Origin: an uncultured Candidatus Saccharibacteria bacterium
Lineage (GTDB): Bacteria; Patescibacteriota; Minisyncoccia; Phycocordibacterales; PALSA-1337
Assembly (NCBI GenBank): GCA_964394505.1
Contig: CAYMXR010000001.1
Coordinates: 9,878 to 73,877, forward strand
Length of the DNA: 64,000 nucleotides
Reading direction: 5' to 3'
Positions 20,564-54,786 of this stretch are shown here, piece after piece. Position numbers and translations under genes: made by a program. Below the pieces are notes generated by a model, which saw only the letters and a list, made by a program, of their open reading frames with translations, was not told the origin of the DNA and did not search any database. Numbering within the stretch: the first letter of the stretch is position 1; each line of letters begins with the position of its first letter.

Positions 20564-20596
20564 TTTTAACGCATTTAAGCCATTAAAGTCGTCTTT

Positions 20597-20626
20597 TATT
20601 CACATAATCCCCAAGCTTATCCACAG
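20597..20626. promoter_or_regulatory. Two DnaA-box 9-mers (TTATTCACA at 8/9, TTATCCACA at 9/9), 12 bp apart, 34-63 bp upstream of yraN
   Basis: Direct match to the TTATCCACA consensus. Confidence 0.35.
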
Positions 20627-20746
20627 TTGTCCATTACGAAATACTATTTTGAGCCATATATTACAGACAACAACTTTTCTTGTAGATAATAGAAAAATTC
20701 AAAATTGCAGAGCCACAATAGGCTTTCTTTGAGACTAACTTCCCTG

Positions 20747-20817
20747 TGCGGGTAGGGAGAATCGAACTCCCACCTCGTCCTTGGCAAGGACGCGTCCTAC
20801 CACTAAACGATACCCGC
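20747..20817 (-). tRNA. tRNA-Gly (anticodon GCC); CCA not encoded
   Basis: Anticodon loop TTGCCAA, T-loop TTCGATT, 7-bp acceptor stem GCGGGTA/TACCCGC. Confidence 0.8.
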
Positions 20818-21063
20818 CTACGCAAATTTAGACCTCCGGTCTAAATTCGCTACGGCGGGCAAGCCCGCTTTGTCCGTAGTAATCTAGAACGAATTAATTG
20901 CCTAAATAAGCAACAAAAGAAGTATACCGTAATAATATTTTTTTACAAATCTAAATGTGCTGGCACTACTACACTCCTCGCAAGCTCAGCGCTACGAAGT
21001 GCTGGCACTACGAAGCCCTACATCGCGCACCAGCACACTGGTGCGCGATTGCGGGCGAAGTAG

Positions 21064-21135
21064 TGCCCTCGGAGGGACTCGAACCCCCAACAGCGGTTCC
21101 GAAGACCGATGTGATATCCATTTCACCACGAGGGC
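21064..21135 (-). tRNA. tRNA-Arg (anticodon UCG); CCA not encoded
   Basis: Acceptor GCCCTCG/CGAGGGC, perfect D-stem, anticodon loop CTTCGGA, T-loop TTCGAGT; one mismatch at the base of the anticodon stem. Confidence 0.6.
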
Positions 21136-37175: not shown

Positions 37176-37979
37176 ATGTATGATAAAGAAACGATGTATT
37201 TACAAGCCAAAAAATCGCTGGGGCAACATTTTCTCAATTCCAGACATGTTTTGGATATTATCATTGAGTGTGCCGAAATTGAAAAAGGGGAACAAATTCT
37301 TGAGATAGGTCCGGGAACAGGAATATTAACGGAAGCATTACTTCTGGCGGGTGCAAATGTAATAGCGATCGAAAAAGATGATCGAGCAATAGATCTACTA
37401 AATGAAAAATTTAGAGGACAAATTTCTTCGAAGCAACTACAAATTATTCGTGGAGATGTTTTGGAAAACACTCCAGACGACCTACCAAAAGACACTTTCA
37501 AAGTTGTTGCCAATATTCCTTACTATATTACCGGAGCAATATTAGAAAAATTTTTAGAAGGCGAGACGAGGCCAACCTCTATGGTTTTATTAGTTCAAAA
37601 AGAGGTAGCCGAAAGGATAGTAGCGCGTGACAGAAAAGAAAGCGTACTTTCTATCTCGGTAAAAGCTTTTGGCGAACCGCGCCTGATCGCAAAAGTCCCA
37701 AGGGGGGCTTTCACACCACCACCAACCGTTGACTCGGCCATTTTGGCTATAGAAAATATTTCTGATGGATTATTTGTAAAGAATGGCCTAGACATAAAGC
37801 GTTTTTTTGAAATAGTCAAAGCCGGTTTTGCTCACAAAAGAAAGTTTGCGATAAGAAATTTGGAAACGGTAGTAGAAAAAGAAAAACTAGAAAAAATTTG
37901 GGAGGCTAGGGGCTATGACCCCAAAATTAGACCTGAAGACATGGCCGTAGGGGACTGGATTGGAATCATACAAGATTAA
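37176..37979 (+). CDS. rsmA: 16S rRNA (adenine1518/1519-N6)-dimethyltransferase
   Basis: LGQHFL...EIGPGTGILT...NIPYYIT. Confidence 0.9.
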   Translation: MYDKETMYLQAKKSLGQHFLNSRHVLDIIIECAEIEKGEQILEIGPGTGILTEALLLAGANVIAIEKDDRAIDLLNEKFRGQISSKQLQIIRGDVLENTPDDLPKDTFKVVANIPYYITGAILEKFLEGETRPTSMVLLVQKEVAERIVARDRKESVLSISVKAFGEPRLIAKVPRGAFTPPPTVDSAILAIENISDGLFVKNGLDIKRFFEIVKAGFAHKRKFAIRNLETVVEKEKLEKIWEARGYDPKIRPEDMAVGDWIGIIQD

Positions 37980-38085
37980 GCTTTTCACTTGAATACCAAA
38001 AGATCACAGACAGATCTAGAGGGACCGCCCACTGTCCACAGAATATAATAATAAAACTGAGTAATTTGCTATAATTGTGATTAGC

Positions 38086-38973
38086 ATGGCAAAAACCTAC
38101 CCGCAGAAACAAACTTTAGTGATTTTTATTGTTTGCGTTATTTTTGTGGCTGGAACTGCGACTTACATTTACGGTTGGCCCTCAACAAAAAACTCCATAA
38201 AATATAGAAATTCCAGTATTCAGCCACAGATAGTAACAAATAATACCAGTACCGGCCCGGAGTCAGACTGGCAAAATCAATTTATTGATGGCAAAGCTAG
38301 CACAACCTTTAGATACGATCCGGTAACACAGAAGAATCCGAAAGCTGGGGTACCAATAAACCCAACTGAAGAATTGGGTCGGGATTTTTTTACAAAATAT
38401 GTCGAATTAAGACAATCAGGACTTAATACGGATGCCAAGACTGTTGATAATGTGGCTACTCAATTAATTAAGGAAAGTGCCTCCAAAATATCGAAACCAA
38501 AAGCATACACTTCCAAAGATATAACTATTGTTCCTGTGGGAACTGGAGTAAACGCAACAAAAATTTACGCTGAAAATCTAGTGGGAATTCTAAAATCATG
38601 GATGCCTGTCAAAAACGAAGCTGAGATTGCCATGGAGGCTTTCGAGGCGGGAGATATGACTTTGTTAAAAGGCATAGACACTGTAATTGCCGGATACAAA
38701 AACGCTGTAACAAGGTTATTGGAGACACCAGTTGTACAGCCCCTAGCCGAAAGTCATCTTGATCTTATAAACGCTATATCTATGCAGACATTCAATGCTC
38801 AAGGGTTAAGAAATTCTGATACAGATCCACTTACCGGTCTAGCAGCCATAAGCCTGGAAGTAAAGAGTTTGGAAGCGATTGCTACCGCTATAGGAAAGAT
38901 GCAAAGTTACTTTGCTTCATCAGGTATTGTATTTAATCTTCCAGTTTCTGGATCAATTCTTCAAAGCCAATAA
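38086..38973 (+). CDS. Hypothetical signal-anchored protein; first gene of the T4SS-like cluster
   Basis: N-terminal TM LVIFIVCVIFVAGTATYIY. The track start at 38077 is a GTG; the ATG at 38086 lies 10 nt after a TATAAT. Confidence 0.4.
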   Translation: MAKTYPQKQTLVIFIVCVIFVAGTATYIYGWPSTKNSIKYRNSSIQPQIVTNNTSTGPESDWQNQFIDGKASTTFRYDPVTQKNPKAGVPINPTEELGRDFFTKYVELRQSGLNTDAKTVDNVATQLIKESASKISKPKAYTSKDITIVPVGTGVNATKIYAENLVGILKSWMPVKNEAEIAMEAFEAGDMTLLKGIDTVIAGYKNAVTRLLETPVVQPLAESHLDLINAISMQTFNAQGLRNSDTDPLTGLAAISLEVKSLEAIATAIGKMQSYFASSGIVFNLPVSGSILQSQ

Positions 38974-38974
38974 C

Positions 38975-40576
38975 ATGTTCAATAATACAATTAGAAAACT
39001 TCAAAAACCCGTTTCCGTCATAATGATATTATCTGTACTACTAATCTCTGTACCAAAACAAACTTTTGCAATCCTCGGTGCTGGCGATACGGTAGTAGTT
39101 GTTGGAGATGTAAGTCCTACAGGAATAACAAACTTTGTCAATCATACTCTGATCAAACTCAAGGAGTTTGTGCTCGACAAAATGGCCACCATGTTAATGA
39201 AGCAAATATTGCATCAAATGACCATGGAAGTTGTTAACTGGATCAATGGAGGCTTTCAGGGAAGCCCTGCATTTCTCACAAACCCAGGAGCATTTTTTCT
39301 AGAGGCAGCCGATCAAGTAACTGGCGCTTTTTTGGCCACAAACGGCCCACTTTCTTCACTTTGTTCACCGTTTGCCATTGACATCCGATTAGCATTGGCA
39401 CTAAGTAAGACATCTATGCTTAATCAGCGATATACATGTACCCTTGGAAAAATTATCCAGGCACAAAAAAACGGTCCGGATATAATCGTGAACGGACAAG
39501 TTGTTCGCTCTTCTCAGGGTTCTATGAATGGATTCCTGCGAGGAGACTTCAATCAAGGTGGATGGCCTGCATTCATTGCTCTCACGACTGAACCCAAAAA
39601 CAATCCCTACGGGGCTTTCCTGTCTGCTGAAGCAGACTTAAACGCAAGAATAAATGCAAAACAAGCAACAATTAGGGCCGATATCCAGCTCGGCCAGGGT
39701 TTCATGTCATGGCAAAAATGTTCAGACATACCTGGAGGAACAGTTGATGCTGAAGACGATTACCAAGTTAATACAGTAGAAAGTATGGTAGGTGTTGACC
39801 CTTCAATCAACCGAAAGGTTAACAAAGACGGAACGATAACATATCAATCTTGCGAAACCCAGACACCTGGATCTGTCATTGCGGGTACCCTACAAACACA
39901 CCTCAATGTTCCAGTGGTAGAACTAGAGCTGGCAGACGACATAAATGCGATCATAAATGCTCTGTTTACAAAAATGACATCGACAATAATTTCTGGTGGA
40001 TTAGGAGCATTGAGTGGTAATTCTGGTGCGGGACCATCGTACACGCAACAAGTAATAGATGAAATAGGTACGGCACAAGTAGATCAGGGGACTTTGGACA
40101 ATTTACAGAATGATATCGGACCAGCAATTCAGAAAATCGATTCATATGTATCGATTTATAAAAAAGCCATAGAAGTGCTATCAGAAACAAAAAACAAATT
40201 TATGGTCGCCAGAAAATGCTTTAGCGATAAGTCGGCAAGCGAGTACGCAGGAAACAAGTTATCAGAAATTGATCTAATAATAAATTCTGATATCAATACA
40301 TCAATCGCCTCAATTGAGGCAAGTATCGCATCCGCAATGGCAGATAGAAAAAAGCTTGAGGATATGTCTCTTACCCTTGCCGGCACAGGTTCTCCAAAGA
40401 AAGTTCAGGCTCAGGCCGAAAGATACTCCCAATTCGTTCAAAGTGGTGGCTTGGATATTCAGTCAAAAATCCAAGTTGCCGAAACCATGCTTGAAAATGC
40501 CCAGAAAAAAGCCAAAGATCTTGATATGAAGGCCACCTTGTTACAACTTGAGTGTTACAGAATGGTTACACCGTAG
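38975..40576 (+). CDS. Hypothetical secreted protein (signal peptide)
   Basis: MFNNTIRKLQKPVSVIMILSVLLISVPKQTFA; the track start at 38912 is extended. Confidence 0.45.
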   Translation: MFNNTIRKLQKPVSVIMILSVLLISVPKQTFAILGAGDTVVVVGDVSPTGITNFVNHTLIKLKEFVLDKMATMLMKQILHQMTMEVVNWINGGFQGSPAFLTNPGAFFLEAADQVTGAFLATNGPLSSLCSPFAIDIRLALALSKTSMLNQRYTCTLGKIIQAQKNGPDIIVNGQVVRSSQGSMNGFLRGDFNQGGWPAFIALTTEPKNNPYGAFLSAEADLNARINAKQATIRADIQLGQGFMSWQKCSDIPGGTVDAEDDYQVNTVESMVGVDPSINRKVNKDGTITYQSCETQTPGSVIAGTLQTHLNVPVVELELADDINAIINALFTKMTSTIISGGLGALSGNSGAGPSYTQQVIDEIGTAQVDQGTLDNLQNDIGPAIQKIDSYVSIYKKAIEVLSETKNKFMVARKCFSDKSASEYAGNKLSEIDLIINSDINTSIASIEASIASAMADRKKLEDMSLTLAGTGSPKKVQAQAERYSQFVQSGGLDIQSKIQVAETMLENAQKKAKDLDMKATLLQLECYRMVTP

Positions 40577-40591
40577 AGATTCCATTAACCT

Positions 40592-42490
40592 ATGAAAATG
40601 AGATTACTAAAAAAATACATACCGCTCATAATCTGTTTGTTTGTCCTGCAGACGGATTTCGCTTTTGCACAAGGTGATATAGCAAAGATTTTTGCATTTA
40701 CTGGAATTGTTGAATTAGCTGACTCCGTAGTAGCCATATTTGCCAATATGGCAATGACGGTAGCGAGCTGGTTACTCATAGCTGCGGGGTATATTTTGGA
40801 CATCTCCATTCAATTGACTCTAAATATCAAAGGTTTTGTAAAAGCTACACCAGCAATCTTCACGGTTTGGAAAAGTCTAAGAGATATTACTGGTCTATTT
40901 TTCATCTTCTATTTGTTATACGCAGCAATACAGATGATGACTGGCTGGGGAAAGGAGAGTTATGGATCAACAATCAAAAATATTGTTATTGCTGGAGTCT
41001 TGATTAACTTTAGTTTCTTTATTGTCAGTTTTGGTATCGATGTCTCCAACATTACCTCCCAAGCTCTTTACGGTGCGATGGTACCAAACAAAGTTATTGT
41101 AAAAATCGACGAGAATGCCAGTATCCAAACTCTGGTGAGTAATGCAGGCAAGTCAGACATTTCAAATATCTTCATGAACACTTTGCGTATCCAATCGATA
41201 TACGACACAAAAGGAAACAAACTTGGCACAGAGATAGGGAATCCGATCAAAACAACTCTTATCGGCATCACTGGTGTAATAATGATGATTACCACTGCGG
41301 CAAGCTTTATCCTCGCAGCCTTGGCATTTATTGCCCGTCTAGTTATTTTGCTATTCCTCTTAGCATTTTCTTCTATTTGGTTTGCCAGCATGGTGATACC
41401 GCAATTAAAAGAAGCCGGCAGCAAATTCCAAGGCGCTCTTATGTCACAACTGCTTTTTATGCCAGCCTATCTGCTCCTCATGTATGTTGCTTTGTCGATA
41501 ATCAATGGTAGTACCATATTCCGTGCTGGGGTGATAGACGGCGCTGCAGCGGGTATCACCGGATCAAATTGGATAATGCCGTATATTATACTTCTGGTAA
41601 ATTTTGCCATCATAATATTTATTTTAAACCTACCCCTCGTGGTTGCGCTTAGTATGGGTGGTTATGCTACCAGCTGGTTCAAGGGCTCGATAGACAAATG
41701 GGACGCATTGAAGGTGTGGAGGAATGTTGGGGGATGGGCGAAAGATAATGCCTGGAGAGGTACCGGTGGCCGAGTCGCAAGCACATTAGCCAAAAGTGAA
41801 GGCCTTAAGAACATTGCTGCTAAAAGCAAATTTGGCGAGCTTGTCTTAAAAGGAGTGCGAGGTGCCGGTGGAAGTTACGATAAGAAACTTGCTGAACAGG
41901 TTGAAGCGAGAACTAAGTTTGCAGAATCACTTGGTGCAAATGAAGGAGAGATAATTGGAATTAAAAAGAAATACAGATCACTCATAGAAAATGCTCTTAC
42001 ACAAGAAAAGCGGGCAAGATCAATGGGTGACACGGTAGCCGCGGATAGATACAAGGCATACGCTGAAAATCTTAAAAAGCAACTTGGCGTAGACTTAGTA
42101 AATAAACAAAAAGAAAGACAAGTAAGTTATGCCGAAAGGATTTCTGATCCTGGTATTCTTAGTACATATCCTAATTTGTGGACAAAAGTTGCCAGAAAAG
42201 ACAAGGTGGCGGCAGCTAAAATCAATATCGATGTATGGCAAAAACAACTAGATAAGAAAAAAGAGGCTGTAACTAAGATAAAACAAGATCTGGAACGCAT
42301 TAAAACAGATATAAGAAGGGAAAAGGCAGCCCGCGGTGGCGTCGTCAGTAAAATAAATGAGGACGAACAAAACAAACTTGAACAAAAGTTAAAAGAAGCA
42401 ACTACTAACCCAAGTCACGGAGGTGATGTTGATGCGATGGGTACAGACGATCTTCAGGACTTGATTGATCAGGAAAAATTAACTAAATAA
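40592..42490 (+). CDS. VirB6/TrbL-like polytopic membrane protein (signal peptide, ~8 TM helices, C-terminal charged coiled-coil)
   Basis: Topology and size resemble T4SS VirB6/TrbL proteins; no sequence motif is decisive. Confidence 0.45.
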   Translation: MKMRLLKKYIPLIICLFVLQTDFAFAQGDIAKIFAFTGIVELADSVVAIFANMAMTVASWLLIAAGYILDISIQLTLNIKGFVKATPAIFTVWKSLRDITGLFFIFYLLYAAIQMMTGWGKESYGSTIKNIVIAGVLINFSFFIVSFGIDVSNITSQALYGAMVPNKVIVKIDENASIQTLVSNAGKSDISNIFMNTLRIQSIYDTKGNKLGTEIGNPIKTTLIGITGVIMMITTAASFILAALAFIARLVILLFLLAFSSIWFASMVIPQLKEAGSKFQGALMSQLLFMPAYLLLMYVALSIINGSTIFRAGVIDGAAAGITGSNWIMPYIILLVNFAIIIFILNLPLVVALSMGGYATSWFKGSIDKWDALKVWRNVGGWAKDNAWRGTGGRVASTLAKSEGLKNIAAKSKFGELVLKGVRGAGGSYDKKLAEQVEARTKFAESLGANEGEIIGIKKKYRSLIENALTQEKRARSMGDTVAADRYKAYAENLKKQLGVDLVNKQKERQVSYAERISDPGILSTYPNLWTKVARKDKVAAAKINIDVWQKQLDKKKEAVTKIKQDLERIKTDIRREKAARGGVVSKINEDEQNKLEQKLKEATTNPSHGGDVDAMGTDDLQDLIDQEKLTK

Positions 42491-42491
42491 T

Positions 42492-43709
42492 ATGGATTTT
42501 GACTATAAAACAATAGAAGAATCTTTCTCCAAACTACCAACTGAACTTCAGGGTATTTTGACATCTCCACACATTGTAGAGAAAATTAAATCGGTTGCCA
42601 CAAAAAACGGCTTACTTATAGACCAGATGTCTTCATTATTTGATATTACTAGTTATATAATATTGGGTTTGATTCCTGCATCCAAATTTTCAGAAATGCT
42701 GATAAAAGAAACTCAAGTCGACAAAGCAAAATCACTGAAAATTGCCGAGGAAATAAATAAGGAGGTCTTTTCAACAATAAAATCAATGATGCGAGAGAAG
42801 CAGGAAGTGGCTGATTTATCAAATACGCCAATACAACCTGCAATCCCGCAAAATATTAATTTAGATGGGAATGTTTCAACTATAACCAAACCATCCCACA
42901 TCACCGATCTGGAGAAAGCTGGTGGATTCACAATAGAGCATGATATGGGAAACGGGGAAGTGGGACTTGGTAGCGAAGATTTACGGGCAATGCCAATGAG
43001 GGACAAATGGTCTCCGTTTGGGCAAACTATCGTTCCAACACCGACTAAACAAACAGTCGAAGCATCTCCTGTGATTACAAAGACCATTGAGGTACAACAA
43101 CCTATTCCAAAATCAGACAATATTCCAACTGAACCATCAACACCAACCCCAGTCATAATAAAGACGATTGAAGCAAAAGAAACCTTTATCAAAGAGCCAA
43201 TAATATCCAAACTAACAGCTCCTGTCGTTGAAGCGCCTATTCAAAAGACTACAGAAGTGATTGAACAAAAAGTTGAGACAAAAATTGAACCGGAAGTTGA
43301 AGTAAAAGAAGAGGTAGTGTCAACAGTTCCAGACAATCTACCAATAGAGCCAGTCACCTTACCAAAAGCAACAGAAGAATCGCCTATACCAAAAGAGCAG
43401 ATCGTTTTACCAAAAACTGTAGGAGAGCCATCTGTGCCAATAGAACCGGAGAATAACTCGCTAGCAGAAACAATAATCAATCTACGCAGGATTAAAGATG
43501 CTACGCCAAAACCACAAATCGAACAGATGCCAACAATTGAACAGCCAACGAAATCAGAGTCAAACACTAAAAAAGAACAAACACCCCCTCCACAACCCGC
43601 TCCAGAATTAATAGTTCCAGAGAAAATAAAATTAAATCCTGGTATACCAAAACCAATCGAACAGCAAAGACCTAGATCGTCTGATCCATACAGAGAACCG
43701 ATAAACTAA
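42492..43709 (+). CDS. Hypothetical protein with a Pro/Glu/Val-rich repetitive C-terminal half
   Basis: 405-aa ORF translationally coupled to the preceding gene. Confidence 0.4.
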   Translation: MDFDYKTIEESFSKLPTELQGILTSPHIVEKIKSVATKNGLLIDQMSSLFDITSYIILGLIPASKFSEMLIKETQVDKAKSLKIAEEINKEVFSTIKSMMREKQEVADLSNTPIQPAIPQNINLDGNVSTITKPSHITDLEKAGGFTIEHDMGNGEVGLGSEDLRAMPMRDKWSPFGQTIVPTPTKQTVEASPVITKTIEVQQPIPKSDNIPTEPSTPTPVIIKTIEAKETFIKEPIISKLTAPVVEAPIQKTTEVIEQKVETKIEPEVEVKEEVVSTVPDNLPIEPVTLPKATEESPIPKEQIVLPKTVGEPSVPIEPENNSLAETIINLRRIKDATPKPQIEQMPTIEQPTKSESNTKKEQTPPPQPAPELIVPEKIKLNPGIPKPIEQQRPRSSDPYREPIN

Positions 43710-43752
43710 ATTCCTTCGCGAGAAAATGATATTTGCAGTATAATATACACAA

Positions 43753-44181
43753 ATGCGATTCCAAGTTCCTCAATTTATAGAAATGGAAGATAAAATCTTC
43801 GGACCACTTACACTCAAACAGTTTATCTATTTGGCTGGCGGAGGAGGTTTGTCATTCGTCGTTTATGTATTCTTAGACAGCCTCATATTATCAATCATCC
43901 CAATTGCTTTAATTGTCGGCATATCTACTTCTTTGGCTTTTTACAAGATAAACAACAAACCCCTTATTTCTATTCTCGAATCAGCTTTTTATTATTACTT
44001 CGGCAACAAATTGTATATCTGGAAAAAGGAAGCTAATGCAAAAAAGGTCAGCGATCCCCAAGCAAATTCAAATAGCTATGCTTCGATCATGGTTCCAAAA
44101 ATTTCCGATAGCAAACTCAAAGACTTAACTTGGAGTTTAGACATAAAAGAAAGTATATATTCCAACAAAAAGCAACAATAA
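43753..44181 (+). CDS. Small two-TM membrane protein, VirB3-like by position and topology
   Basis: Hairpin TM pair; immediately upstream of the VirB4 genes. Confidence 0.35.
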   Translation: MRFQVPQFIEMEDKIFGPLTLKQFIYLAGGGGLSFVVYVFLDSLILSIIPIALIVGISTSLAFYKINNKPLISILESAFYYYFGNKLYIWKKEANAKKVSDPQANSNSYASIMVPKISDSKLKDLTWSLDIKESIYSNKKQQ

Positions 44182-44182
44182 A

Positions 44183-44824
44183 ATGGCCAATTCATCAAAA
44201 GCAACTCAAGAGTTCGTGCCCATCAAGGAGATCCGTGATGGTATTGTGATACTCAAAAATGGGGGAATGAGAAGCCTTGTACTTGTTTCATCTTTGAATT
44301 TCGCACTCAAATCTGAGGATGAGCAAAGCTCAATACTTATGCAGTTTCAAAATTTTCTAAATTCACTTGATTTCTCAGTACAAATCTTTATTCAATCAAA
44401 AAAACTGGACATAAGGCCGTATGTAGCTTTACTAGAAGATCGATATAAAGACCAAGTAAGTGAGCTTATGAAAATCCAGGTCAGAGAATACATAGAATTC
44501 GTCAAGACCTTTGTCGAAAATACAAGCATTATGTCAAAAAGTTTTTTTGTAGTCGTACCTTACGATCCAGCGGCGATAAACATTTCCAAGAATCCTATTT
44601 CTAAATTTTTTCCAGGGAAAAACAATAACCAGACTCAATCAGAAAACGCTGACGAGCAATTCAACGAATACCGAAGCCAGCTAGAGCAAAGAGTAGCGGT
44701 AGTCGAACAGGGTTTAGTCAGGTGTGGTATCAGAACCGCAGAACTCGGTACCGAGGAAGTGGTAGAATTGTATTACAAACTTTTCAATCCCGGAGAAACA
44801 GAGAAACCGATCCAAATAACATAA
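44183..44824 (+). CDS. VirB4/TrbE/CagE-family N-terminal domain as a separate ORF
   Basis: ATQEFVPIKEIRDGIVILKNGGMRSLVLVSSLNF resembles the VirB4 N-terminus. The stop is 4 nt before the next ATG, in a different frame. Confidence 0.55.
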   Translation: MANSSKATQEFVPIKEIRDGIVILKNGGMRSLVLVSSLNFALKSEDEQSSILMQFQNFLNSLDFSVQIFIQSKKLDIRPYVALLEDRYKDQVSELMKIQVREYIEFVKTFVENTSIMSKSFFVVVPYDPAAINISKNPISKFFPGKNNNQTQSENADEQFNEYRSQLEQRVAVVEQGLVRCGIRTAELGTEEVVELYYKLFNPGETEKPIQIT

Positions 44825-44828
44825 AATT

Positions 44829-46643
44829 ATGTCTTTCATTTCAAAATTACTAGGAAAAAAAGAAGAATCGCCAATAGTCTCTGTTCTCCCGGAGGAGATA
44901 TACCAGGCTGGGGTCTTGGAACTCCGAGATGTTATAGCCCCATCAGCTCTCAAGGTAAGCCCCAAGGATCTAAACCTTGGAGAAAAGGTTGGTCGAACAC
45001 TCTTTGTGATTTCATACCCCCGTTTTGTGAACGAAGGGTGGTTTGCCCCGATCATCAACCTAGACAAAGTCTTCAATGTTTCAATATTCATTCACCCCGT
45101 CGATACCGCCAAAATTCTTCGTCATTTCCAAAAGAAAGTTGCCGAAGTTCAAAGCCAAATTTCAAGAAGGGAAGAGAAGGGTTTGGTCCGAGAACCTTCT
45201 TTGGATACTGCATATCAAGATCTAGAATCTCTTCGCGATCAATTGATGCAGGCACAAGAACATCTATTTGATGTCGGTGTTTACATCACAATATTTGCCG
45301 ATTCCGACAATGAGCTCGACAAACTCGAATCAGAGATAAAATCAATTCTTGAGTCGAAGCTAGTCTATGTAAAACCTGCTTTGTTCCAACAAGAACAAGG
45401 TTTCAAAAGCGTTTTGCCGATCGGCGACGATCTCTTGGCAGTTCATTCCAAACTCAACTCTTCACCACTTTCTTCTTTGTTTCCTTTTGTTTCTTTTGAT
45501 CTTACTTCCGACAAGGGAATACTTTACGGCATAAACCGCCACAACTCTTCATTGGTTCTTTTTGATCGTTATTCATTAGAAAATTACAATTCTGTAACAT
45601 TTGCTGTTGCTGGTTCTGGTAAATCTTACTGCACAAAACTTGAGATTCTTCGAACTTTGATGTTCGACACTGATGTCATAGTTATCGATCCAGAAAAAGA
45701 ATACGAATATATGGCCTCGGCTACTGGTGGAAAATATTTCAACATTTCACTCAATTCAGAACATCACATCAACCCATTTGATCTACCAATACCTAGAGAA
45801 GACGAATCCGCCAGTGATGTTTTGCGTTCAAATATCATCAACCTTGTGGGTTTGTTTCGTATCATGCTTGGAGGTTTGTCACAAGAAGAAGATGCTATCA
45901 TTGACCGAGCAATCACCGAGACTTATGCCTTGAAAGACATTACTCCCGAATCAGATTTTCACAATGTAGAACCTCCTCTATTGTCAGATTTCGAGCTTGT
46001 CTTGGCTGGAATGGAAGGAGCAGATTCCTTGGTGCAAAGATTATCCAAATATACAAAAGGCACTTGGGCAGGTTTCATAAACCGACCATCAAATGTTGAT
46101 ATCAACAAAAAATTTGTCGTCTTCTCTTTACGAGACATGGAGGATGAACTCAAACCTGTGGCAATGTACATCGTCACTCACTATATCTGGAACGCTATTA
46201 GAAAAAACCTAAAGAAGAGACTTCTGGTCATAGACGAAGCTTGGTGGATGATGAAATCCGAAGATACCGCTTCATTCCTTTTTGGTCTAGCCAAAAGAGG
46301 CAGAAAATATTTCCTTGGTTTGGCCACTATCACCCAAGATGTTGATGATTTCCTGAAATCTCCTTACGGTTTACCAATTCTTACAAACTCTTCTATCCAA
46401 ATATTGCTCAAACAATCTCCGACTGTGATAGATCACATTCAGCAGACATTCCACCTTACCGATGAAGAAAAATACCTGTTATTGGAGTCGGATGTGGGGG
46501 AGGGTATATTCTTCGTTGGCCTCAAACATGTCGCTATAAAAATAGTCGCTTCATATACAGAAGACCAGATAATCACCACTAATCCTGCTCAAGTCATACA
46601 AATAGCTCAAGCAAAAAAAGAACTAGAAAATCTTGGTAAGTAA
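44829..46643 (+). CDS. virB4: VirB4-like type IV secretion ATPase (C-terminal NTPase portion)
   Basis: Walker A AVAGSGKSY, Walker B LLVIDEAWWM, conserved YPRFVNEGWFAPI region, and the TITQDVDDF motif. Confidence 0.8.
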   Translation: MSFISKLLGKKEESPIVSVLPEEIYQAGVLELRDVIAPSALKVSPKDLNLGEKVGRTLFVISYPRFVNEGWFAPIINLDKVFNVSIFIHPVDTAKILRHFQKKVAEVQSQISRREEKGLVREPSLDTAYQDLESLRDQLMQAQEHLFDVGVYITIFADSDNELDKLESEIKSILESKLVYVKPALFQQEQGFKSVLPIGDDLLAVHSKLNSSPLSSLFPFVSFDLTSDKGILYGINRHNSSLVLFDRYSLENYNSVTFAVAGSGKSYCTKLEILRTLMFDTDVIVIDPEKEYEYMASATGGKYFNISLNSEHHINPFDLPIPREDESASDVLRSNIINLVGLFRIMLGGLSQEEDAIIDRAITETYALKDITPESDFHNVEPPLLSDFELVLAGMEGADSLVQRLSKYTKGTWAGFINRPSNVDINKKFVVFSLRDMEDELKPVAMYIVTHYIWNAIRKNLKKRLLVIDEAWWMMKSEDTASFLFGLAKRGRKYFLGLATITQDVDDFLKSPYGLPILTNSSIQILLKQSPTVIDHIQQTFHLTDEEKYLLLESDVGEGIFFVGLKHVAIKIVASYTEDQIITTNPAQVIQIAQAKKELENLGK

Positions 46644-46663
46644 AATTCTGATATAATCTGAGT

Positions 46664-47149
46664 ATGTCTACGAAGGGAAACAGATCAAAGGGAATTGGTT
46701 GGATAATCATGTATATTTTTACAGGAGCGGTTGACTTATTCCAGATCTTCGTTTCCGCTACTGGTATCGGAATCGTCGCAAGTGAATTTGTTGAATTTGC
46801 AATGCCCTTTATTTTGATATTTGTTTTTCAGTTTATAATCAAAGCCTCCGTCATTACCAAACCAGACCGACTAGGATCTATTGCCGGTGCTTTGGGTCTA
46901 GGCGCCCTCACCGGCGGGATCGCGCCATTTTGGATTGTTGATGTTTGGTATATTCAGAGAAGTGTAAAAAAAGAAGATGCCGAATACAATAGGCAAGAAC
47001 AAAAGCAGCAACTATTGACCAACAACACTAGACAGACACTTTACCGAGACGGAGTAAGGCAACCACAAAGACTAGGACAAGGTGAGGGCAACGATTCTGG
47101 ACCACAATACAAAGAGGGTATACGGACACCAAACGGGGGACTGAAATAG
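46664..47149 (+). CDS. Hypothetical small polytopic membrane protein
   Basis: 3-4 TM helices. Confidence 0.4.
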   Translation: MSTKGNRSKGIGWIIMYIFTGAVDLFQIFVSATGIGIVASEFVEFAMPFILIFVFQFIIKASVITKPDRLGSIAGALGLGALTGGIAPFWIVDVWYIQRSVKKEDAEYNRQEQKQQLLTNNTRQTLYRDGVRQPQRLGQGEGNDSGPQYKEGIRTPNGGLK

Positions 47150-47209
47150 GGATGTGTCACATCCCCCCCTTCAATTGATTAAAGTGCGATTTGCCAGTAA
47201 AATATAGCA

Positions 47210-48211
47210 ATGAATCGTTTGCTATTTTTTATAACATTGATCTTTATAAGCACATTTTCGATTGTCTCGACTAGCGCCCAAGGGCTTCCCATAAACGGTG
47301 GAGGGATAATTTTGACAATGTCTACCGAGAGTCCTGTCCCCGGTCAAAAAATAACCATTACGGCCAGAAGTTACACTATAGACATCAATTCATCAGAAGT
47401 AACATGGTCAATTGATGACAAAATCATTCAAAAAGGATTTGGCTTAACAAAAATGGAAACGATCGCTCCTCCCCTTGGTAAAAAGGTTACAGTGACTGTT
47501 TCGGCCTCTACCAATACAGGAATAAAAATTTCTGACTCTATAACCATAAGCCCCGGTTCAGTCGATATGATAATAGAAGGGGATGGTTATGTTACGCCAC
47601 TTTTCCAAGGCAAATTACCATTATCATACCAAAACACTTTTCGTATAATCGCTGTGCCACACCTAGCAGATTCCAAAGGAGTCGAATACAAAGCGAAAGA
47701 TTTGGTTTATCAATGGAAAAGGAATAGCCGAGTTATAGAAGAAGATAGCGGTTATGGAAAACAAACCTTATCTTTGACAGGAGATATTGTGCCAAGAGAA
47801 GCGACGATAAGTGTCACGGTTTCAACAAGAGATGGTAAAGAGAGAACTACTGGTTATATCTCTGTCCCTTATATTTCTCCTTCTGTATTATTTTATGAAG
47901 ATGACTATTTGTATGGACCTCTTTTCAATAAAACTATAAAAGATACAATTATTATTGGCAAAGAAAAAGAACTTAATGTCTTGATGGCACCTTTTGGTTT
48001 CAATAAACCAACAAAAGGTCTTGGTGATTTGAATCTGCTTTGGACGATCAATGGTTATGAACATCCAGAACTATCTTCAAACGAATCAATTACCCTCCGA
48101 GCTCCAGCGGGTATGTCTGGGTCATCACGAATTGGTCTAGAAATCACTAATGATAAAGATATTCTTCAAAATGCTGATAATGGCTTTTCCATAAAATTTA
48201 ATTCAAAATGA
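47210..48211 (+). CDS. Hypothetical secreted protein (signal peptide)
   Basis: MNRLLFFITLIFISTFSIVSTSAQG. Confidence 0.4.
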   Translation: MNRLLFFITLIFISTFSIVSTSAQGLPINGGGIILTMSTESPVPGQKITITARSYTIDINSSEVTWSIDDKIIQKGFGLTKMETIAPPLGKKVTVTVSASTNTGIKISDSITISPGSVDMIIEGDGYVTPLFQGKLPLSYQNTFRIIAVPHLADSKGVEYKAKDLVYQWKRNSRVIEEDSGYGKQTLSLTGDIVPREATISVTVSTRDGKERTTGYISVPYISPSVLFYEDDYLYGPLFNKTIKDTIIIGKEKELNVLMAPFGFNKPTKGLGDLNLLWTINGYEHPELSSNESITLRAPAGMSGSSRIGLEITNDKDILQNADNGFSIKFNSK

Positions 48212-49419
48212 AAAATCTAAATAAAATCTTACTGGTGGTTGCAATGATTTCGATCTTGGGGTCTTCATATTCATGTTTGGCACAATCTGATGCAAAATAT
48301 ACTGTACTTGCTCCTTTACCTTGTATAGAAAGCGCAGAAACTACATATATTGACAGCCAGGGCCAATCCAGAACCAATCCAGGTATCACTTGCGAAGGTA
48401 ATGGTTCGGTTGCAACTGAAGTAGATTTCAAAACTTATGTGCAATACACCATGAATCTTCTCATTGCTCTATCTGCTGTCGTAGCTGTGGTAATGTTGGT
48501 TTGGGGAGGTATAGAGTACATGTTCACAAGCTCTTTTTCTTCAAAAAAGAGCGGTTTGGAGCGAGCGCAAAACGCTTTGGTTGGTCTATTACTTGTACTC
48601 ACCTCCTACATCATTCTCCGCACCGTAGACCCTAGGTTGGTAGAGATACCAAATACTCTAGTGCCACAATTGACGGTAAGGGAGGAGTTACGGGAAGATG
48701 TGTTTGACTCATTCACGACTCAATTAGAAAATGAAATTACTGAGTATGACAAAAATCGAACTAAGCTCGGTGAAGAGCTGACTGATATTAGACGAAAAAG
48801 AGCGGAGCTAGCAGAAAAAGAAAAAGATCTTCAAAGAAGGATCGCCTCTTCTACAGATCCTGTAGAGATTAATAAGTTAAAGGTGGAACTGGAAAAGACA
48901 ATGGAAGAAAATATTCAAAAGAAAGCGGTTGATATTGTAAAAAAGGCAACAATCGCAATTAATGGCAACTTGGATGAAATAGCAAAGATTGTGCTTGAGG
49001 GGAGGGATTACCAACACCAAGACAAGTTTGATGTGATAAGCCGAAATATGGGACTACTCAACAAGCACCTTGCAAATATGCAGATAGAGTATGCAGTCGC
49101 GACCGAAGAGTTAGGCAAGATTAGAGTGTTTGACAGCACATCTTTAAGGGACCAGAGGAATCATTACACAACGATCGGTAGACTAGACATGTTGAATTTA
49201 TCAATCGGTAGTATCACTGGCTCAAATAATTATTACGATGTAATTCTAACCAATGGAACCAAAGATAAGAAAAGGGGTCCTGTACTGAAAGAGGAAATCC
49301 AGACTGAAATCAACAGTCTGCAAAGATTTATCGACGCAACAACCGATACTGAACTTAAACAAAAAATGGTGACCAAAAAAGCCCAGGTAGAAGCAGCACT
49401 AAAAAATAAACTTCCATAA
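48208..49419 (+). CDS. Hypothetical secreted protein with a Cys-containing N-domain, a two-TM hairpin and a long coiled-coil; 4-nt ATGA overlap with the upstream gene
   Basis: Signal peptide plus the MNLLIALSAVVAVVMLVWGGIEY / ALVGLLLVLTSYIIL hydrophobic pair. Confidence 0.4.
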   Translation: MKNLNKILLVVAMISILGSSYSCLAQSDAKYTVLAPLPCIESAETTYIDSQGQSRTNPGITCEGNGSVATEVDFKTYVQYTMNLLIALSAVVAVVMLVWGGIEYMFTSSFSSKKSGLERAQNALVGLLLVLTSYIILRTVDPRLVEIPNTLVPQLTVREELREDVFDSFTTQLENEITEYDKNRTKLGEELTDIRRKRAELAEKEKDLQRRIASSTDPVEINKLKVELEKTMEENIQKKAVDIVKKATIAINGNLDEIAKIVLEGRDYQHQDKFDVISRNMGLLNKHLANMQIEYAVATEELGKIRVFDSTSLRDQRNHYTTIGRLDMLNLSIGSITGSNNYYDVILTNGTKDKKRGPVLKEEIQTEINSLQRFIDATTDTELKQKMVTKKAQVEAALKNKLP

Positions 49420-49427
49420 AAAAATAA

Positions 49428-50759
49428 ATGCGAAACTCGACCAAAATAATCTGGATAATATTAATCATACTGATCATTTCGGTTGCTTTGTATTGGTACT
49501 TCTTCTTTTATGGCCCAGGCAATCAGATAGAACCTATTGTAAATGATCCAAACACACCTTCTGGTTTCGTACCTCTAAATAGCAATAATCCAACAAACAA
49601 TCCGGTAAGCACGACCGAACCCGATATCGATTCCGCAACGACGACGGATAATGGCCTAGACTTGCAAACGATCGAGGGTACATTGCCAAAATTGCGTTTA
49701 CTTAGCAACACACCGATCGGTGGTTATGGAGCAAGTACAACCGCAAGTACAACCGTTGTCCGTTGGATCGATAGAGGGAGGGGTAATATCCTAGAAGCCA
49801 AGGGTGATTCCGGTGAAATTGTCATATTGTCAAACACTCTTTTGCCACGAATGTATGAGGGGGTTTGGAATAAGAACATAACCGCTTTCATCGGATCATT
49901 AATCAATAATAATGCCGACACCCCATCAACTGTCTATGCAAAACTTTATTCCCAAGCAAGCACAACAAGCAAAGTCGCAACCTCAACCTCAATTGCAACA
50001 ACAACTGATGAAAAAAATACCAATGTTACTCCTTATTATATAAAAGGTAAAAACTTACCAGAAAACATCATAGATTATGCCGTATCACCAGGAGGTGACA
50101 AAGTATTCCTTCTAATAAAAGAATCCGGTCAAGGTGTCGGGTATGTGGCAAATTTCGATGGAACAAAACTAATTCAAATATTCAATCAACCGCTCACAGA
50201 AGTCAATGTTGATTGGCCAGAAGAAAACACCCTAACCATAGCAACCAAAGGGTCAGCAAACCATCAAGGTTTTCTATATTTTGTTAACGCAAAAACTGGA
50301 ATATGGCAAAAGGTTCTTGGTCCAATATATGGACTTAGCGCCAAGGTAAGCAGGGACGCAAAATATATTCTTGTCTCAACCATCAATGCCGACAAGGAAC
50401 CAGTAATAAAAATATACAAAGTAGGAACAAGCGCACCAATCGACACCATGATCAGGACTTTGGCAGATAAATGCGTCTGGGGCAACAACTACAAAGAACT
50501 GGTTTACTGCGCAGTACCATCAAATACAGAAAACGCCACTTATCCCGATGATTGGTACAAAGGTTCCGTTGACTTTAGTGACAAGATTTTACAATACAAC
50601 ACAAAAGACGAAACTATTTCGGTCGTCTCTCCTATACTAGATCAAACCGATAGACTTATAGACGCTTTCAATCTTGGAGTCGACGACCGTGATGATTTTC
50701 TATTCTTTATGAACAAGCACGATCTATCGTTTTGGTCATTGGACCTTAGTGCAGAGTAA
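49428..50759 (+). CDS. Hypothetical membrane-anchored beta-rich extracytoplasmic protein
   Basis: N-terminal TM IIWIILIILIISVALYWYFFFY. Confidence 0.4.
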   Translation: MRNSTKIIWIILIILIISVALYWYFFFYGPGNQIEPIVNDPNTPSGFVPLNSNNPTNNPVSTTEPDIDSATTTDNGLDLQTIEGTLPKLRLLSNTPIGGYGASTTASTTVVRWIDRGRGNILEAKGDSGEIVILSNTLLPRMYEGVWNKNITAFIGSLINNNADTPSTVYAKLYSQASTTSKVATSTSIATTTDEKNTNVTPYYIKGKNLPENIIDYAVSPGGDKVFLLIKESGQGVGYVANFDGTKLIQIFNQPLTEVNVDWPEENTLTIATKGSANHQGFLYFVNAKTGIWQKVLGPIYGLSAKVSRDAKYILVSTINADKEPVIKIYKVGTSAPIDTMIRTLADKCVWGNNYKELVYCAVPSNTENATYPDDWYKGSVDFSDKILQYNTKDETISVVSPILDQTDRLIDAFNLGVDDRDDFLFFMNKHDLSFWSLDLSAE

Positions 50760-50767
50760 TTGAGGAA

Positions 50768-51526
50768 TTATCTTATGTGTTTTTTCTTGATGTACAACTC
50801 TTGTGCCAAAGTAAACAGGGAACTAACTGACCAGTAGATCGCAATGATTGAGGCGGCTTGGGGGAAACTAGCTGGAATAATCCAGTATATTGAAGCGAAA
50901 GCAACAACTGGAAGTATGTACTTCATCTGAGTATTCATTGAGCTTGCCATCTGTGAAGCAGGGTCAAGCTTGCCTCCGCTCTTAACTGTAGCATCTGCCA
51001 TATCCTGTTGCTGACGAGCAGCAACTGAATACTTGAGTTGGAAATATTGGATCACTCCAGTAATAAGAGCCAAAATAAAACTCTTTTGAGTCAGATCTAG
51101 ACCCAAAAGGGTAGCGCTGGCGTGCGGAGCCTGAATAAAAGAATACAATAATTCTGGTTGAACGTTTGGGATAATCTTGTAAAAGACCGAGATCAGAGCA
51201 AAAAGGATCGGTAACTGAATAATCAAAAGTAATATACTAGAAAGAGGATTAACTCCTTTTTGTTTATAAAGTTCCATTATCTTCAAAGCCTGTTCTTGTT
51301 TGTTGTTTGAGTACTGCAACCTGATCTTATTTGCTTCTGGTTCAATCGCTTTCATCCTAACTTGAGTAAGTAAAGCTTTTTTTGATAGAGGAAATAGAAT
51401 AAATTTGATAATACAAGTAAAAATAACTACTGCAAGACCAACATCTATACCAGGAATAATGTTCATAATTCCAATAAGGCCGTTGTATAAGGGAAGAAAA
51501 ATTAGCTCTTTATATAAATTGTACAT
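50768..51526 (-). CDS. yidC: Membrane protein insertase YidC (short form)
   Basis: 252 aa with YidC/Oxa1 core helices; sits in the rpmH-rnpA-yidC synteny. Confidence 0.85.
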   Translation of the reverse strand: MYNLYKELIFLPLYNGLIGIMNIIPGIDVGLAVVIFTCIIKFILFPLSKKALLTQVRMKAIEPEANKIRLQYSNNKQEQALKIMELYKQKGVNPLSSILLLIIQLPILFALISVFYKIIPNVQPELLYSFIQAPHASATLLGLDLTQKSFILALITGVIQYFQLKYSVAARQQQDMADATVKSGGKLDPASQMASSMNTQMKYILPVVAFASIYWIIPASFPQAASIIAIYWSVSSLFTLAQELYIKKKHIR

Positions 51527-51535
51527 CTGTGTATT

Positions 51536-51865
51536 TTACTTTATAAGCCCGGCTTTTACAAAGATTTCTTTTACCTCTTCTAATAATGAATCTTTTTCTG
51601 TTTTTGTTTTCAAACACAAGACCATTTGATAACCAGAGAGGGGGAGGCTTCCACAAATCAAAGCAATTGCATTGTACATCTTTCTTCTATAACCGACTCT
51701 CTGCGAAGCCTTGCTTGCAATTTTTTGTGGAACTATGGCCGAAAACCTAGTCTGGCCTTCGTTTTTTATAATTCTCAACCAAAAAGACGGTGTATGAACA
51801 ACTTTGCCAGTTTTCATAACCAAATCTAACTGTTCACTAGAGAGTCTTTTTGAACGGGGGAGCAT
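51536..51865 (-). CDS. rnpA: Ribonuclease P protein component
   Basis: MLPRSKRLSS...; RNR-motif-like basic region; the track ORF from 51931 is extended. Confidence 0.8.
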   Translation of the reverse strand: MLPRSKRLSSEQLDLVMKTGKVVHTPSFWLRIIKNEGQTRFSAIVPQKIASKASQRVGYRRKMYNAIALICGSLPLSGYQMVLCLKTKTEKDSLLEEVKEIFVKAGLIK

Positions 51866-51872
51866 GCTTCCA

Positions 51873-52007
51873 TTATACAGCCACGCGCTTCCTGCCGATA
51901 CTGCGTCTTCGGGCCAAAACCTTGCGACCACCAGGACTTTTCATTCGAACACGAAAACCGTGTGACTTTGCTCTTTTTCTTTTGTTTGGATTGTATGTAA
52001 ATGACAT
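51873..52007 (-). CDS. rpmH: 50S ribosomal protein L34
   Basis: Hand-translated: [44 protein letters not shown]; below the ORF-track size cutoff. Confidence 0.85.
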
Positions 52008-53679: not shown

Positions 53680-54786
53680 ATGAAAATTGAATTAAATATA
53701 CAGAAACTTAAAAACGCGGTGACTGCTGTGGAAAAGATTGCAGGAAAACACATAACCCTTCCTGTGTTATCGTGTATTTTAATAGAAGTAAAAAACAATA
53801 TAGCTGTTTTTAAATCAACAAACCTTGATGTTGGTATAGAAGTATCTGTTCCTGTAAAATCAAGCGAAGATGGAATAATTGCCGCTCCTGCCCACACCCT
53901 TTCCGCTTTCGTCTCTCAAATAGTTGAAAACGATCAAATAGTGAAACTTGACGACTCTTCAGGAAATCTAAAAATTACAACAACAAAAACAACAGGGACG
54001 ATAAAAATTCAAGCATTTGATGATTTTCCTTCAATACCAAGGGTCACTGATGGTAAAAAAATTGTATTGTCTTCAGAAATCTTTCTTAAGGGTTTGAAGT
54101 CGGTTTGGTACAGTTCTTCTGTTTCGAGTGTTAAACCGGAGCTTTCTAGTGTTTTTATATACAAAGATGAAGGAAATTTGGTCTTTGTTGCTACCGACTC
54201 TTTTCGTTTGGCGGAAAGAAAAGTAAAACTACCAAATACAGCCGACATTAGTGATATTTTGATTCCATTCAAAAACATTCCAGACCTAAGTCGGGTTTTG
54301 GAGAACATGAACGAAGATATTGAGGTTACTATAAACAAAAACCTAATCTCCTTTGAAGGAAAGGGAATATATGCCGTTTCCAGGCTTATCGATGGTATTT
54401 TCCCAGATTACAGACAGATCATTCCAAAAAATTACAGCACGGAGGTTATTCTACTAAAACAGGATCTAACCAACGCTTTAAAAGTCTCAAACATTTTTTC
54501 AGATAAATTTAACCAAGTTCGTTTTGTAATAGACCCCAAAGCCAAAATATTCAACATACAGACAAAAAATAGCGACATAGGGGAGAATGTTACTTCCTTG
54601 GACGCTTCATTGACTGGAGAGGTTTTGGAGATTAATTTCAATTACAAATACATTGTAGATTGTTTCCAATCAATAGACGCGGACAGTGTTTCCTTATCTT
54701 TGGGTGGTATAAGTAAACCGATGGTGATAAGGCCAATATCCGGAGACCAATCGTTTATGTATCTAGTTATGCCAATGAATCGATAA
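53680..54786 (+). CDS. dnaN: DNA polymerase III beta sliding clamp
   Basis: 368 aa with a three-domain clamp-like profile, directly after dnaA. Confidence 0.9.
   Translation: MKIELNIQKLKNAVTAVEKIAGKHITLPVLSCILIEVKNNIAVFKSTNLDVGIEVSVPVKSSEDGIIAAPAHTLSAFVSQIVENDQIVKLDDSSGNLKITTTKTTGTIKIQAFDDFPSIPRVTDGKKIVLSSEIFLKGLKSVWYSSSVSSVKPELSSVFIYKDEGNLVFVATDSFRLAERKVKLPNTADISDILIPFKNIPDLSRVLENMNEDIEVTINKNLISFEGKGIYAVSRLIDGIFPDYRQIIPKNYSTEVILLKQDLTNALKVSNIFSDKFNQVRFVIDPKAKIFNIQTKNSDIGENVTSLDASLTGEVLEINFNYKYIVDCFQSIDADSVSLSLGGISKPMVIRPISGDQSFMYLVMPMNR

Follow-up and report, generated by a model that had tools for sequence, protein, structure and literature searches.

The VirB4 motor of the T4SS encoded in the window (the whole 64,000-nucleotide stretch of DNA that we analyzed) is split between two neighboring genes, and this split is ancient, conserved, and under selection. 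The two-cistron locus very probably represents the normal, predicted functional form of the VirB4 motor in Patescibacteria T4SSs, with the N-terminal domain shared between ORF1 (its first half) and ORF2 (its second half, together with the ATPase). The coordinates and lengths of the ORFs (213 + 604 = 817 aa), as well as the TAA-AATT-ATG junction, are exactly as described in a previous sequence-only reading, which proposed an ORF for the VirB4 N-terminal domain followed by an ORF for the ATPase. The ATPase is indeed located on ORF2 (RecA-like domain, residues ~228–583); however, the N-terminal domain is itself cut midway rather than where it meets the ATPase domain, such that its second half (residues ~30–227) also resides on ORF2. 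The pair is located on the chromosome of an ultra-small bacterium, with rnpA, yidC, dnaA, and dnaN as neighbors, and the features of the surrounding T4SS cluster are collected in Table 1.

Table 1. Coordinates of the VirB4 gene pair, its junction, and other genes of the T4SS cluster within the window.
Feature	Position	Strand	Description
Polytopic membrane protein	40592..42490	+	632 aa; 7 TM-like hydrophobic segments; same cluster
PrgI-family (VirB3-like) small membrane protein	43753..44181	+	142 aa; Pfam PF12666 PrgI, E 4.1e-9, above cut-off
ORF1	44183..44824	+	ATG start; 213 aa; stop TAA at 44822-44824; stand-alone TrsD/TraC-like protein
Junction	44817..44831	+	TAA in ORF2 frame, 44817-44819; ORF1 stop TAA, 44822-44824; AATT, 44825-44828; ATG, 44829-44831
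ORF2	44829..46643	+	ATG start; 604 aa; VirB4 core
Protein with T4SS-pilin-like segment	48208..49419	+	Pfam PF18895 T4SS_pilin; downstream in cluster

ORF2 is a VirB4-family T4SS ATPase whose activity is predicted from its profile matches and motifs. Its best model is the CD1110 (CTn2-type) VirB4, NCBIfam NF045971, rather than a pGO1-type model; the score is 375 bits (cut-off 325, E 7.2e-112), and Pfam P-loop_TraG is matched with 89.7 bits (cut-off 25.8). [quoted passage not shown] The Walker A motif (GSGKS, residues 262–266) and the Walker B motif (DE, residues 469–470) are both present, and Gly262, Gly264, Lys265, Asp469, and Glu470 are invariant in the homologue alignment. What ORF2 does not contain is a complete N-terminal domain, which spans ~400 aa in TrwK; the missing first half is supplied by ORF1.

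The 213-aa ORF had been said to resemble the VirB4 N-terminal domain, and we find that the homology of ORF1 covers its first half. It matches NCBIfam VirB4_plasma at model positions 99–233 of 894 (E 4.5e-12) and the NCBIfam CD1110 VirB4 at model positions 2–88, while BLASTP aligns its residues 6–205 with residues 21–193 of a 783-aa Clostridium perfringens VirB4 (E 4e-8). An AlphaFold model of ORF1 built from an alignment of 100 diverse sequences reached a pLDDT of 89.3; an earlier run with a shallow alignment (20 sequences at 77–86% identity, pLDDT 46.6) was discarded. In a Foldseek comparison of the model against the PDB, the best 14 matches were all TrwK/VirB4, and the model superposes on TrwK; the predicted fold of ORF1 is that of an experimentally solved VirB4 (TrwK). 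Neither ORF1 by itself nor the 100-sequence profile retrieved anything relevant in sequence searches of the PDB, so the link between ORF1 and TrwK comes from the fold comparison only. ORF1 also resembles TrsD of the staphylococcal plasmid pSK41: profile alignment places the ORF1 family colinearly on TrsD residues 32–217 (hhalign probability 79%, E 1.6e-5), the pairwise BLASTP match being weak (E 0.012), and the NCBIfam TrsD/TraD model NF041427 is matched with 23.4 bits (E 4.4e-5), which does not reach its curated cut-off of 200. Pfam PF26593 (“TraC-like”) is listed in precomputed tables for ORF1 and all ORF1 homologues, and a local Pfam profile search gave noise only.

At least 8000 homologues of ORF1 were found at E<=1e-3, and this number, together with the score of ORF2 above the VirB4 cut-off, places the matches of both ORFs far beyond chance. 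Every one of the best 120 homologues is 211–235 aa long, and 149 of the best 150 representatives of 50%-identity clusters are stand-alone proteins (146–443 aa). No TM segment was found in ORF1, whose C-terminal sequence, NPGETEKPIQIT, hardly varies across 20 homologues. ORF1 is of a soluble type of ~200–230 aa whose gene lies between that of a VirB3-like protein and that of a VirB4-like ATPase without the N-terminal ~200 residues. The homologues are labelled Paceibacterota, Patescibacteria, or Taylorbacteria.

VirB4/TrwK of R388, TraC of F, and the CD1110-family VirB4 of Clostridia are single polypeptides, whereas two are encoded here, and ORF1 and ORF2 cover single-chain VirB4 colinearly over the whole protein. 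ORF2 residues 30–564 align with residues 210–754 of the 783-aa C. perfringens VirB4 that ORF1 also matches. A fused protein of 797 aa, found in three MAGs of Candidatus Colwellbacteria, aligns at its residues 1–214 with ORF1 residues 1–208 (46% identity) and at its residues 225–796 with ORF2 residues 27–597 (56% identity). In both alignments (21–193/210–754 and 1–214/225–796) the end of ORF1 and the start of ORF2 abut with no overlap, bearing out the proposal that the two together make up one full-length VirB4. Two short regions are additional to the fused forms: a conserved N-terminal leader of ~27 residues on ORF2 and a tail of ~5 residues on ORF1.

It could be argued that no true split exists, ORF1 being an independent accessory protein (e.g., a paralogue of the VirB4 N-terminus that has its own role) and ORF2 a self-sufficient VirB4. 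TrsD/TraD is a family of its own in NCBIfam, to which no function is assigned, as also in Quinonero-Coronel et al. (Microb Genom 2025, PMC12102498), where Gracilibacteria TrsD homologues are also reported not to adjoin virB4; furthermore, long low-complexity C-terminal extensions in 35 of the 150 ORF1-homologue representatives hint at extra roles. However, the VirB4 matches of ORF2 begin only at position 184 of the CD1110 model (184–733 of 752), at position 293 of the 894-position VirB4 model, and at residue 210 of the C. perfringens protein, and the Pfam TraC_F_IV match in the fused Colwellbacteria protein (residues 169–394) runs across the junction position. Because ORF2 is without the region that ORF1 supplies and TraC_F_IV crosses the junction, ORF1 and ORF2 are complementary, non-redundant pieces of one VirB4, and we regard the accessory-protein explanation as improbable.

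Two further explanations had been left standing by the sequence-only reading. A sequencing or assembly error, in which an indel near 44820 makes one virB4 look like two ORFs, has as its sole support two neighboring ORFs in different frames (44183 mod 3 = 2, 44829 mod 3 = 0) whose lengths add up to one VirB4. Against it, the identical 213-aa and 604-aa pair occurs at the same 4-nt spacing on contigs from three independent samples (JGI 3300055001, Logan DRR198493, and JGI 3300043411), ORF2 possesses its own conserved leader, and the stop and restart are retained in 80/80 related species genomes, in which both the spacer (−4 to 421 nt, median 6) and the relative frame vary. The split is thus conserved in related genomes, and we reject a frameshift artefact, whose probability is close to nil, on the strength of the independent samples and the 80 species.

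A recent pseudogenisation, with virB4 broken by a nonsense or frameshift mutation and now decaying, has nothing in its favor beyond the split itself. Because dS was saturated in 78/80 comparisons, NG86 dN/dS was replaced by raw pN and pS. For ORF1, pN is 0.16 (range 0.10–0.24) versus a pS of 0.86, and for ORF2, pN is 0.08 (range 0.04–0.16) versus a pS of 0.84, with synonymous sites saturated in both ORFs (pS 0.74–1.0). Neither a pN/pS near 1 nor scattered further stops were seen in the relatives. Both halves of VirB4 are therefore under strong purifying selection; moreover, the positions of the stop and restart are kept over 80 species at 63–85% protein identity, the Walker A and Walker B residues of ORF2 are intact, and a TrsD homologue is listed as essential in Southlakia epibionticum (PMC12102498). 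With pN far below pS in both halves, recent pseudogenisation is rejected as hardly conceivable.

Programmed recoding, by which a ribosomal frameshift or stop read-through would yield one fused VirB4 of 817 aa in addition to, or in place of, the two separate proteins, would fit the 4-nt junction with ORF2 in the +1 frame and the viability of the fused form in Colwellbacteria. However, the in-frame TAA that closes the ORF2 frame lies only 3 codons 5′ of the ORF2 ATG, leaving almost no room for a shift. Across the 80 species, the three relative frames (0, +1, and +2) are about equally common (30/29/21), spacers extend up to 421 nt and may hold hairpin repeats or, in one species, a whole inserted gene, and no slippery motif is conserved at the homologous junctions. 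Recoding is rejected on these grounds as very improbable. The stop codons of the ORF1 homologues are TAA in 47 species, TGA in 17, and TAG in 16.

Translational coupling had been proposed for the junction. The short or overlapping junctions favor termination-reinitiation coupling in most species, but such coupling would not be obligatory; since the spacer is >=19 nt in about one-quarter of the 80 species and one species carries an inserted gene, it is not universal. Reading the sequence directly, we found no Shine-Dalgarno-like motif just upstream of the ATG of either ORF1 or ORF2. A scan of positions 37900–51000 detected promoter and terminator sites no more numerous than in shuffled sequence, with none at the junction. 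The order PrgI (VirB3-like)-ORF1-ORF2 is conserved and tightly packed: a single nucleotide separates the stop of the PrgI-family gene from the ORF1 ATG, and a PrgI-like gene lies immediately 5′ of the ORF1 homologue on the same strand in 79/80 related genomes (median spacer 2 nt). PrgI, ORF1, and ORF2 are probably co-translated from one mRNA.

In R388, the VirB4 N-terminal domain (residues 15–400 in TrwK) is wrapped by VirB3, and dimer contacts are made via the N-terminal domains (PMC9259494). In our proposed model, ORF1 and ORF2 would bind non-covalently after translation and thereby restore the N-terminal domain in full. If the R388 structure is taken as a guide, the restored domain may be clasped by the VirB3-like PrgI protein, which has two TM-like segments (residues 27–46 and 48–66), and would hold the ATPase hexamer at the membrane and mediate contacts between subunits.

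A close counterpart is the pair TrsD and TrsE (= TraD and TraE) encoded on pGO1 and pSK41, two conjugative plasmids of Staphylococcus aureus (MPF_FATA, pGO1 subclass); their genes are arranged in the same order as the genes here. In pSK41, a small VirB3-like membrane protein is followed by TrsD (227 aa), a 14-nt spacer, and the VirB4-like ATPase TrsE (672 aa), and the break between TrsD and TrsE is the same as that between ORF1 and ORF2, with ORF2 residue 4 aligning with TrsE residue 2 (E 2e-37). The staphylococcal trs genes are plasmid-borne and part of a conjugation system that includes a relaxase and a coupling protein, whereas the genes described here are chromosomal. The order VirB3-like/N-half/ATPase is also found in Geobacillus pGspE55-1 and C. 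botulinum pCBG. VirB3-VirB4 fusions in some Gram-negative T4SSs, cited in PMC12102498, show that a module of VirB3, VirB4 N-half, and VirB4 core can be packaged in varying numbers of polypeptides; that change runs in the opposite direction, fused there versus split here, and the survey in PMC12102498 found no VirB3-VirB4 fusion in Patescibacteria.

A single ancient fission common to Patescibacteria T4SSs and monoderm systems of the pGO1/pSK41 type (and of some Bacillus and Clostridium), later reversed by secondary fusion in lineages such as Colwellbacteria, might have freed the N-half for separate control of docking modules versus ATPase cores; we put this forward as a conjecture that is rather unlikely to be right. 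If true, the cell could set separately how many membrane-docking modules (PrgI with the TrsD-like protein) and how many ATPase cores are made or assembled, which is impossible with a single-chain VirB4.

The two-gene VirB4 arrangement is already published, and models for the TrsD-like proteins exist in Pfam (PF26593) and NCBIfam (NF041427). Guglielmini et al. 2014 (PMC4027160) do not name TrsD in their main text, and the 2025 FEMS nomenclature review mentions neither TrsD nor a split VirB4. PMC12102498 describes TrsD as a remote homologue of the VirB4 N-terminus, reports that among T4SS components in Patescibacteria the TrsD-like proteins are the most abundant, and counts 2,272 TrsD homologues, of which 1,664 adjoin virB4; the present locus is an instance of the TrsD-like/VirB4 pairs reported there and shows no substantive difference from them. 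Relative to the accessible portions of that paper, our analysis adds the exact break point, its coincidence with that in pSK41, statistics on spacers and frames, the fused Colwellbacteria variant, and the structural match to TrwK.

The arrangement matters mainly for annotation and does not by itself open a new question. A short “hypothetical protein” preceding a “truncated” VirB4, in Patescibacteria and in many Firmicute elements, should be read as the first half of VirB4, and such short ORFs should not be annotated as frameshifted, pseudogenised, or unrelated. An essential T4SS cluster is described for S. epibionticum (Wang et al. 2023, PMC10633639). Epibiotic growth of the sole genetically tractable Patescibacterium is reported, in that work and in PMC12102498, to depend on the T4SS as an essential system; the two-chain motor is therefore relevant to structural modelling, reconstitution, and inhibition.

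The remainder of the cluster also resembles Patescibacteria T4SSs, in which the TrsD-like gene adjoins virB4, with PrgI upstream and a pilin-like gene nearby. The 632-aa polytopic membrane protein, for which a Pfam search gave no match, is a possible candidate for a VirB6-like channel subunit, judging by its position and topology. The pilin-like segment downstream of ORF2 matches PF18895 with an E of 9.3e-6 and 26.1 bits, just below the cut-off of 26.6.

Two adjacent genes follow the PrgI gene, which encodes a VirB3-like small membrane protein: ORF1, a TrsD/TraC-like gene, and ORF2, a VirB4 core gene. Reading the sequence reproduced exactly the coordinates, lengths, 4-nt spacing and different frames that the sequence-only reading had assigned to them. 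ORF2's own frame is shut by a TAA at 44817–44819, three codons upstream of its ATG, and neither ATG is preceded by a Shine-Dalgarno-like motif.

Features of the window in and around the two-gene VirB4 locus
Feature	Position	Strand	Remarks
tRNA genes Gly-TCC, Pro-TGG, Gly-GCC, Arg-TCG	19452–21135	-	four genes clustered within about 1.7 kb
405-aa ORF	42492–43709	+	just 5' of the PrgI gene
PrgI-family gene	43753–44181	+	142 aa; ends 1 nt ahead of ORF1
ORF1	44183–44824	+	213 aa; stop TAA
ORF1/ORF2 spacer			4 nt, AATT
ORF2	44829–46643	+	604 aa; frame differs from ORF1
yidC	50768–51526	-	
rnpA-like gene	51536–51931	-	Ribonuclease_P match in the near-identical locus L084
dnaA	52120–53493		
dnaN	53680–54786		

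ORF2 is a VirB4-family ATPase by sequence comparison: with the CD1110 VirB4 model of NCBIfam it scores 375 bits (cut-off 325; model positions 184–733 of 752), and its residues 228–583 align with the VirB4 C-terminal domain structure 4AG5 (E 1.3e-37). Its Walker A (GSGKS, 262–266) and Walker B (DE, 469–470) motifs are intact and invariant in the alignment with Firmicute homologues. In every VirB4 model, the first 180–290 positions have no ORF2 match, and the family-model search showed that ORF1 covers precisely this part: it matches VirB4_plasma (positions 99–233 of 894, E 4.5e-12), CD1110 VirB4 (model positions 2–88) and, far below the curated cut-off, the TrsD/TraD family (E 4.4e-5). An AlphaFold2 model of ORF1 built with a 100-sequence alignment is confident (pLDDT 89.3, pTM 0.78), and its best 14 Foldseek matches in the PDB are all TrwK/VirB4 chains (probability 0.99–1.00, TM-score on query 0.34–0.55), with the matches beneath them falling to noise.

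Single-chain homologues place the two halves side by side. In the 783-aa VirB4 of a C. perfringens plasmid, residues 21–193 correspond to ORF1 6–205 and residues 210–754 to ORF2 30–564. Among the best 150 matches in 1.84 billion cluster representatives, one relative is fused, a 797-aa protein found in three Candidatus Colwellbacteria MAGs, whose residues 1–214 match ORF1 1–208 (46% identity) and residues 225–796 match ORF2 27–597 (56% identity). Thus, the end of ORF1 and the start of ORF2 are contiguous on full-length VirB4, without the overlap that the sequence-only reading had named as the sign of a frameshift artefact. That reading's two-ORF VirB4 holds, while its placement of the cut at the border between the N-terminal domain and the ATPase does not: the Pfam TraC_F_IV N-terminal-domain match spans the junction in the fused Colwellbacteria protein (residues 169–394), and the N-terminal domain of TrwK, the VirB4 of R388, comprises residues 15–400 (PMC9259494), so the cut falls within the N-terminal domain.

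The sequence-only reading had also allowed for a sequencing frameshift or recent pseudogenisation. ORF1 has at least 8000 homologues, the best 120 of which are all 211–235 aa long, and those with a named source are labelled Paceibacterota, Patescibacteria or Taylorbacteria. Its C-terminus, NPGETEKPIQIT, is almost invariant among 20 homologues, three of which carry single conservative substitutions, and contigs of three independent samples encode the identical 213-aa protein followed at equal spacing by a 604-aa gene. Among 80 species-representative genomes (ORF1 identity 63–85%, ORF2 identity 77–96%), all 80 retain the ORF1 stop at the homologous position and begin the ATPase gene anew with an ATG. 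The junction itself varies: spacer length lies between -4 (an ATGA overlap) and 421 nt (median 6; modes 1, -4 and 4), the three relative frames occur 30/29/21 times, the ORF1 stop is TAA in 47, TGA in 17 and TAG in 16 species, hairpin repeats occur in several spacers, and a complete 114-aa gene in one. Substitution at synonymous sites has reached saturation (pS about 0.85), with pN at 0.16 for ORF1 and 0.08 for ORF2. Taken together, the homologues, independent samples, junction statistics and pN far below pS rule out sequencing error, recent decay and a conserved recoding signal at the junction, and the two-gene VirB4 is genuine.

The 114-aa gene, a '23S rRNA-intervening sequence protein' by its Pfam match (PF05635, E 5.9e-33), lies at 4683–5027 (+) of the Candidatus Zambryskibacteria locus L072, where a spacer of 421 nt separates the TrsD-like gene from virB4. 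Long inverted repeats occupy spacers of 68–194 nt, at about locus positions 4640–4840, in the related loci L009, L025 and L027, and also in L023, L028, L029, L039, L066, L069 and L083; they look like small repeat/MITE-like elements or terminator-like hairpins inserted at the junction. A GTCATTCCCGCGAAAGCGGGAATCC-type palindrome is common to L009 and L025, and L027 has a related one. In the Parcubacteria MAG JBKJHK010000019 (L080:4652–8446, +), the VirB4-core gene encodes 1264 aa and contains, just past the Walker A region, an intein that carries a LAGLIDADG homing endonuclease (Pfam Intein_splicing E 2.3e-20, LAGLIDADG_3 E 4.5e-21). ORF1-family proteins can also be longer, 35 of the 150 best representatives having 261–450 aa; the two sequences read, P0180 (443 aa) and P0148 (356 aa), bear long Pro/Ala/Thr/Gln-rich low-complexity C-terminal tails past the conserved ~205-aa domain, and the homologue on a Geobacillus plasmid is likewise extended (318 aa).

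Both the literature and the family databases already contain the two-gene arrangement. Quinonero-Coronel et al. 2025 (PMC12102498) explicitly report TrsD-virB4 in Patescibacteria, describe TrsD as remotely homologous to the N-terminal portion of VirB4 and as the commonest T4SS component in the group (2,272 homologues, 1,664 adjoining virB4), and list S. epibionticum TrsD as essential; Pfam holds a family for TrsD-like proteins (PF26593, TraC-like). On the Staphylococcus plasmid pSK41, a small VirB3-like gene precedes trsD (227 aa) and a 672-aa DUF87/VirB4-like gene (TrsE), with a trsD/TrsE spacer of 14 nt compared to 4 nt in the window. TrsE from residue 2 onward aligns with ORF2 from residue 4 onward (E 2e-37), and the aligned break point is therefore equal in both; TrsD is colinear with the ORF1 family profile (hhalign probability 79%, E 1.6e-5). 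The same split is present on plasmids of Geobacillus and C. botulinum, each with a PrgI gene ahead. To the published description our analysis adds the exact break position within the N-terminal domain and its identity with the pSK41 TrsD|TrsE break. It also quantifies the junctions across species, identifies a fused form in Colwellbacteria and matches the TrsD-like protein to TrwK by structure.

All ATPase halves examined in split systems (window, pSK41 TrsE, Geobacillus and C. botulinum; window 44829–44870 and columns 1–25 of the ORF2 alignment with Firmicute homologues) begin M..F/L-KKK(K/E), hydrophobic then basic, and a comparable Lys-rich stretch stands at the N-terminus of the single-chain C. 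perfringens VirB4. This motif may be a compositional coincidence or a common membrane- or partner-binding tail.

The ORF1 and ORF2 proteins complement each other and are both conserved; 79 of the 80 relatives have the genes in the order PrgI-ORF1-ORF2, PrgI and ORF1 being a median of 2 nt apart. In R388, the VirB4 N-terminal domain is wrapped by VirB3 and dimer contacts run via the N-terminal domains (PMC9259494). By analogy, ORF1 would bind ORF2 at its N-terminal part and so complete the VirB4 N-terminal domain, PrgI would clasp this domain at the membrane, and the resulting hexamer of two-chain VirB4 would power the Patescibacteria T4SS. Junctions that are short or overlapping in most species suggest that the two are co-translated from one mRNA; long spacers in about one quarter of species show that translational coupling is dispensable.

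The T4SS-like cluster (about 38077–50759) directly adjoins yidC, the rnpA-like gene, dnaA and dnaN, and therefore lies at the presumed replication origin. Locus tags of the essential S. epibionticum T4SS are also very low (SEML1_0006–0019), so this position may be conserved. The 405-aa ORF has no family match and no TM segment; it is rich in Pro/Glu/Thr/Ile/Lys with repeated 'PxxxE/K' stretches, and its size varies (378 vs 405 aa) among the otherwise near-identical contigs L084/L085 and L086.
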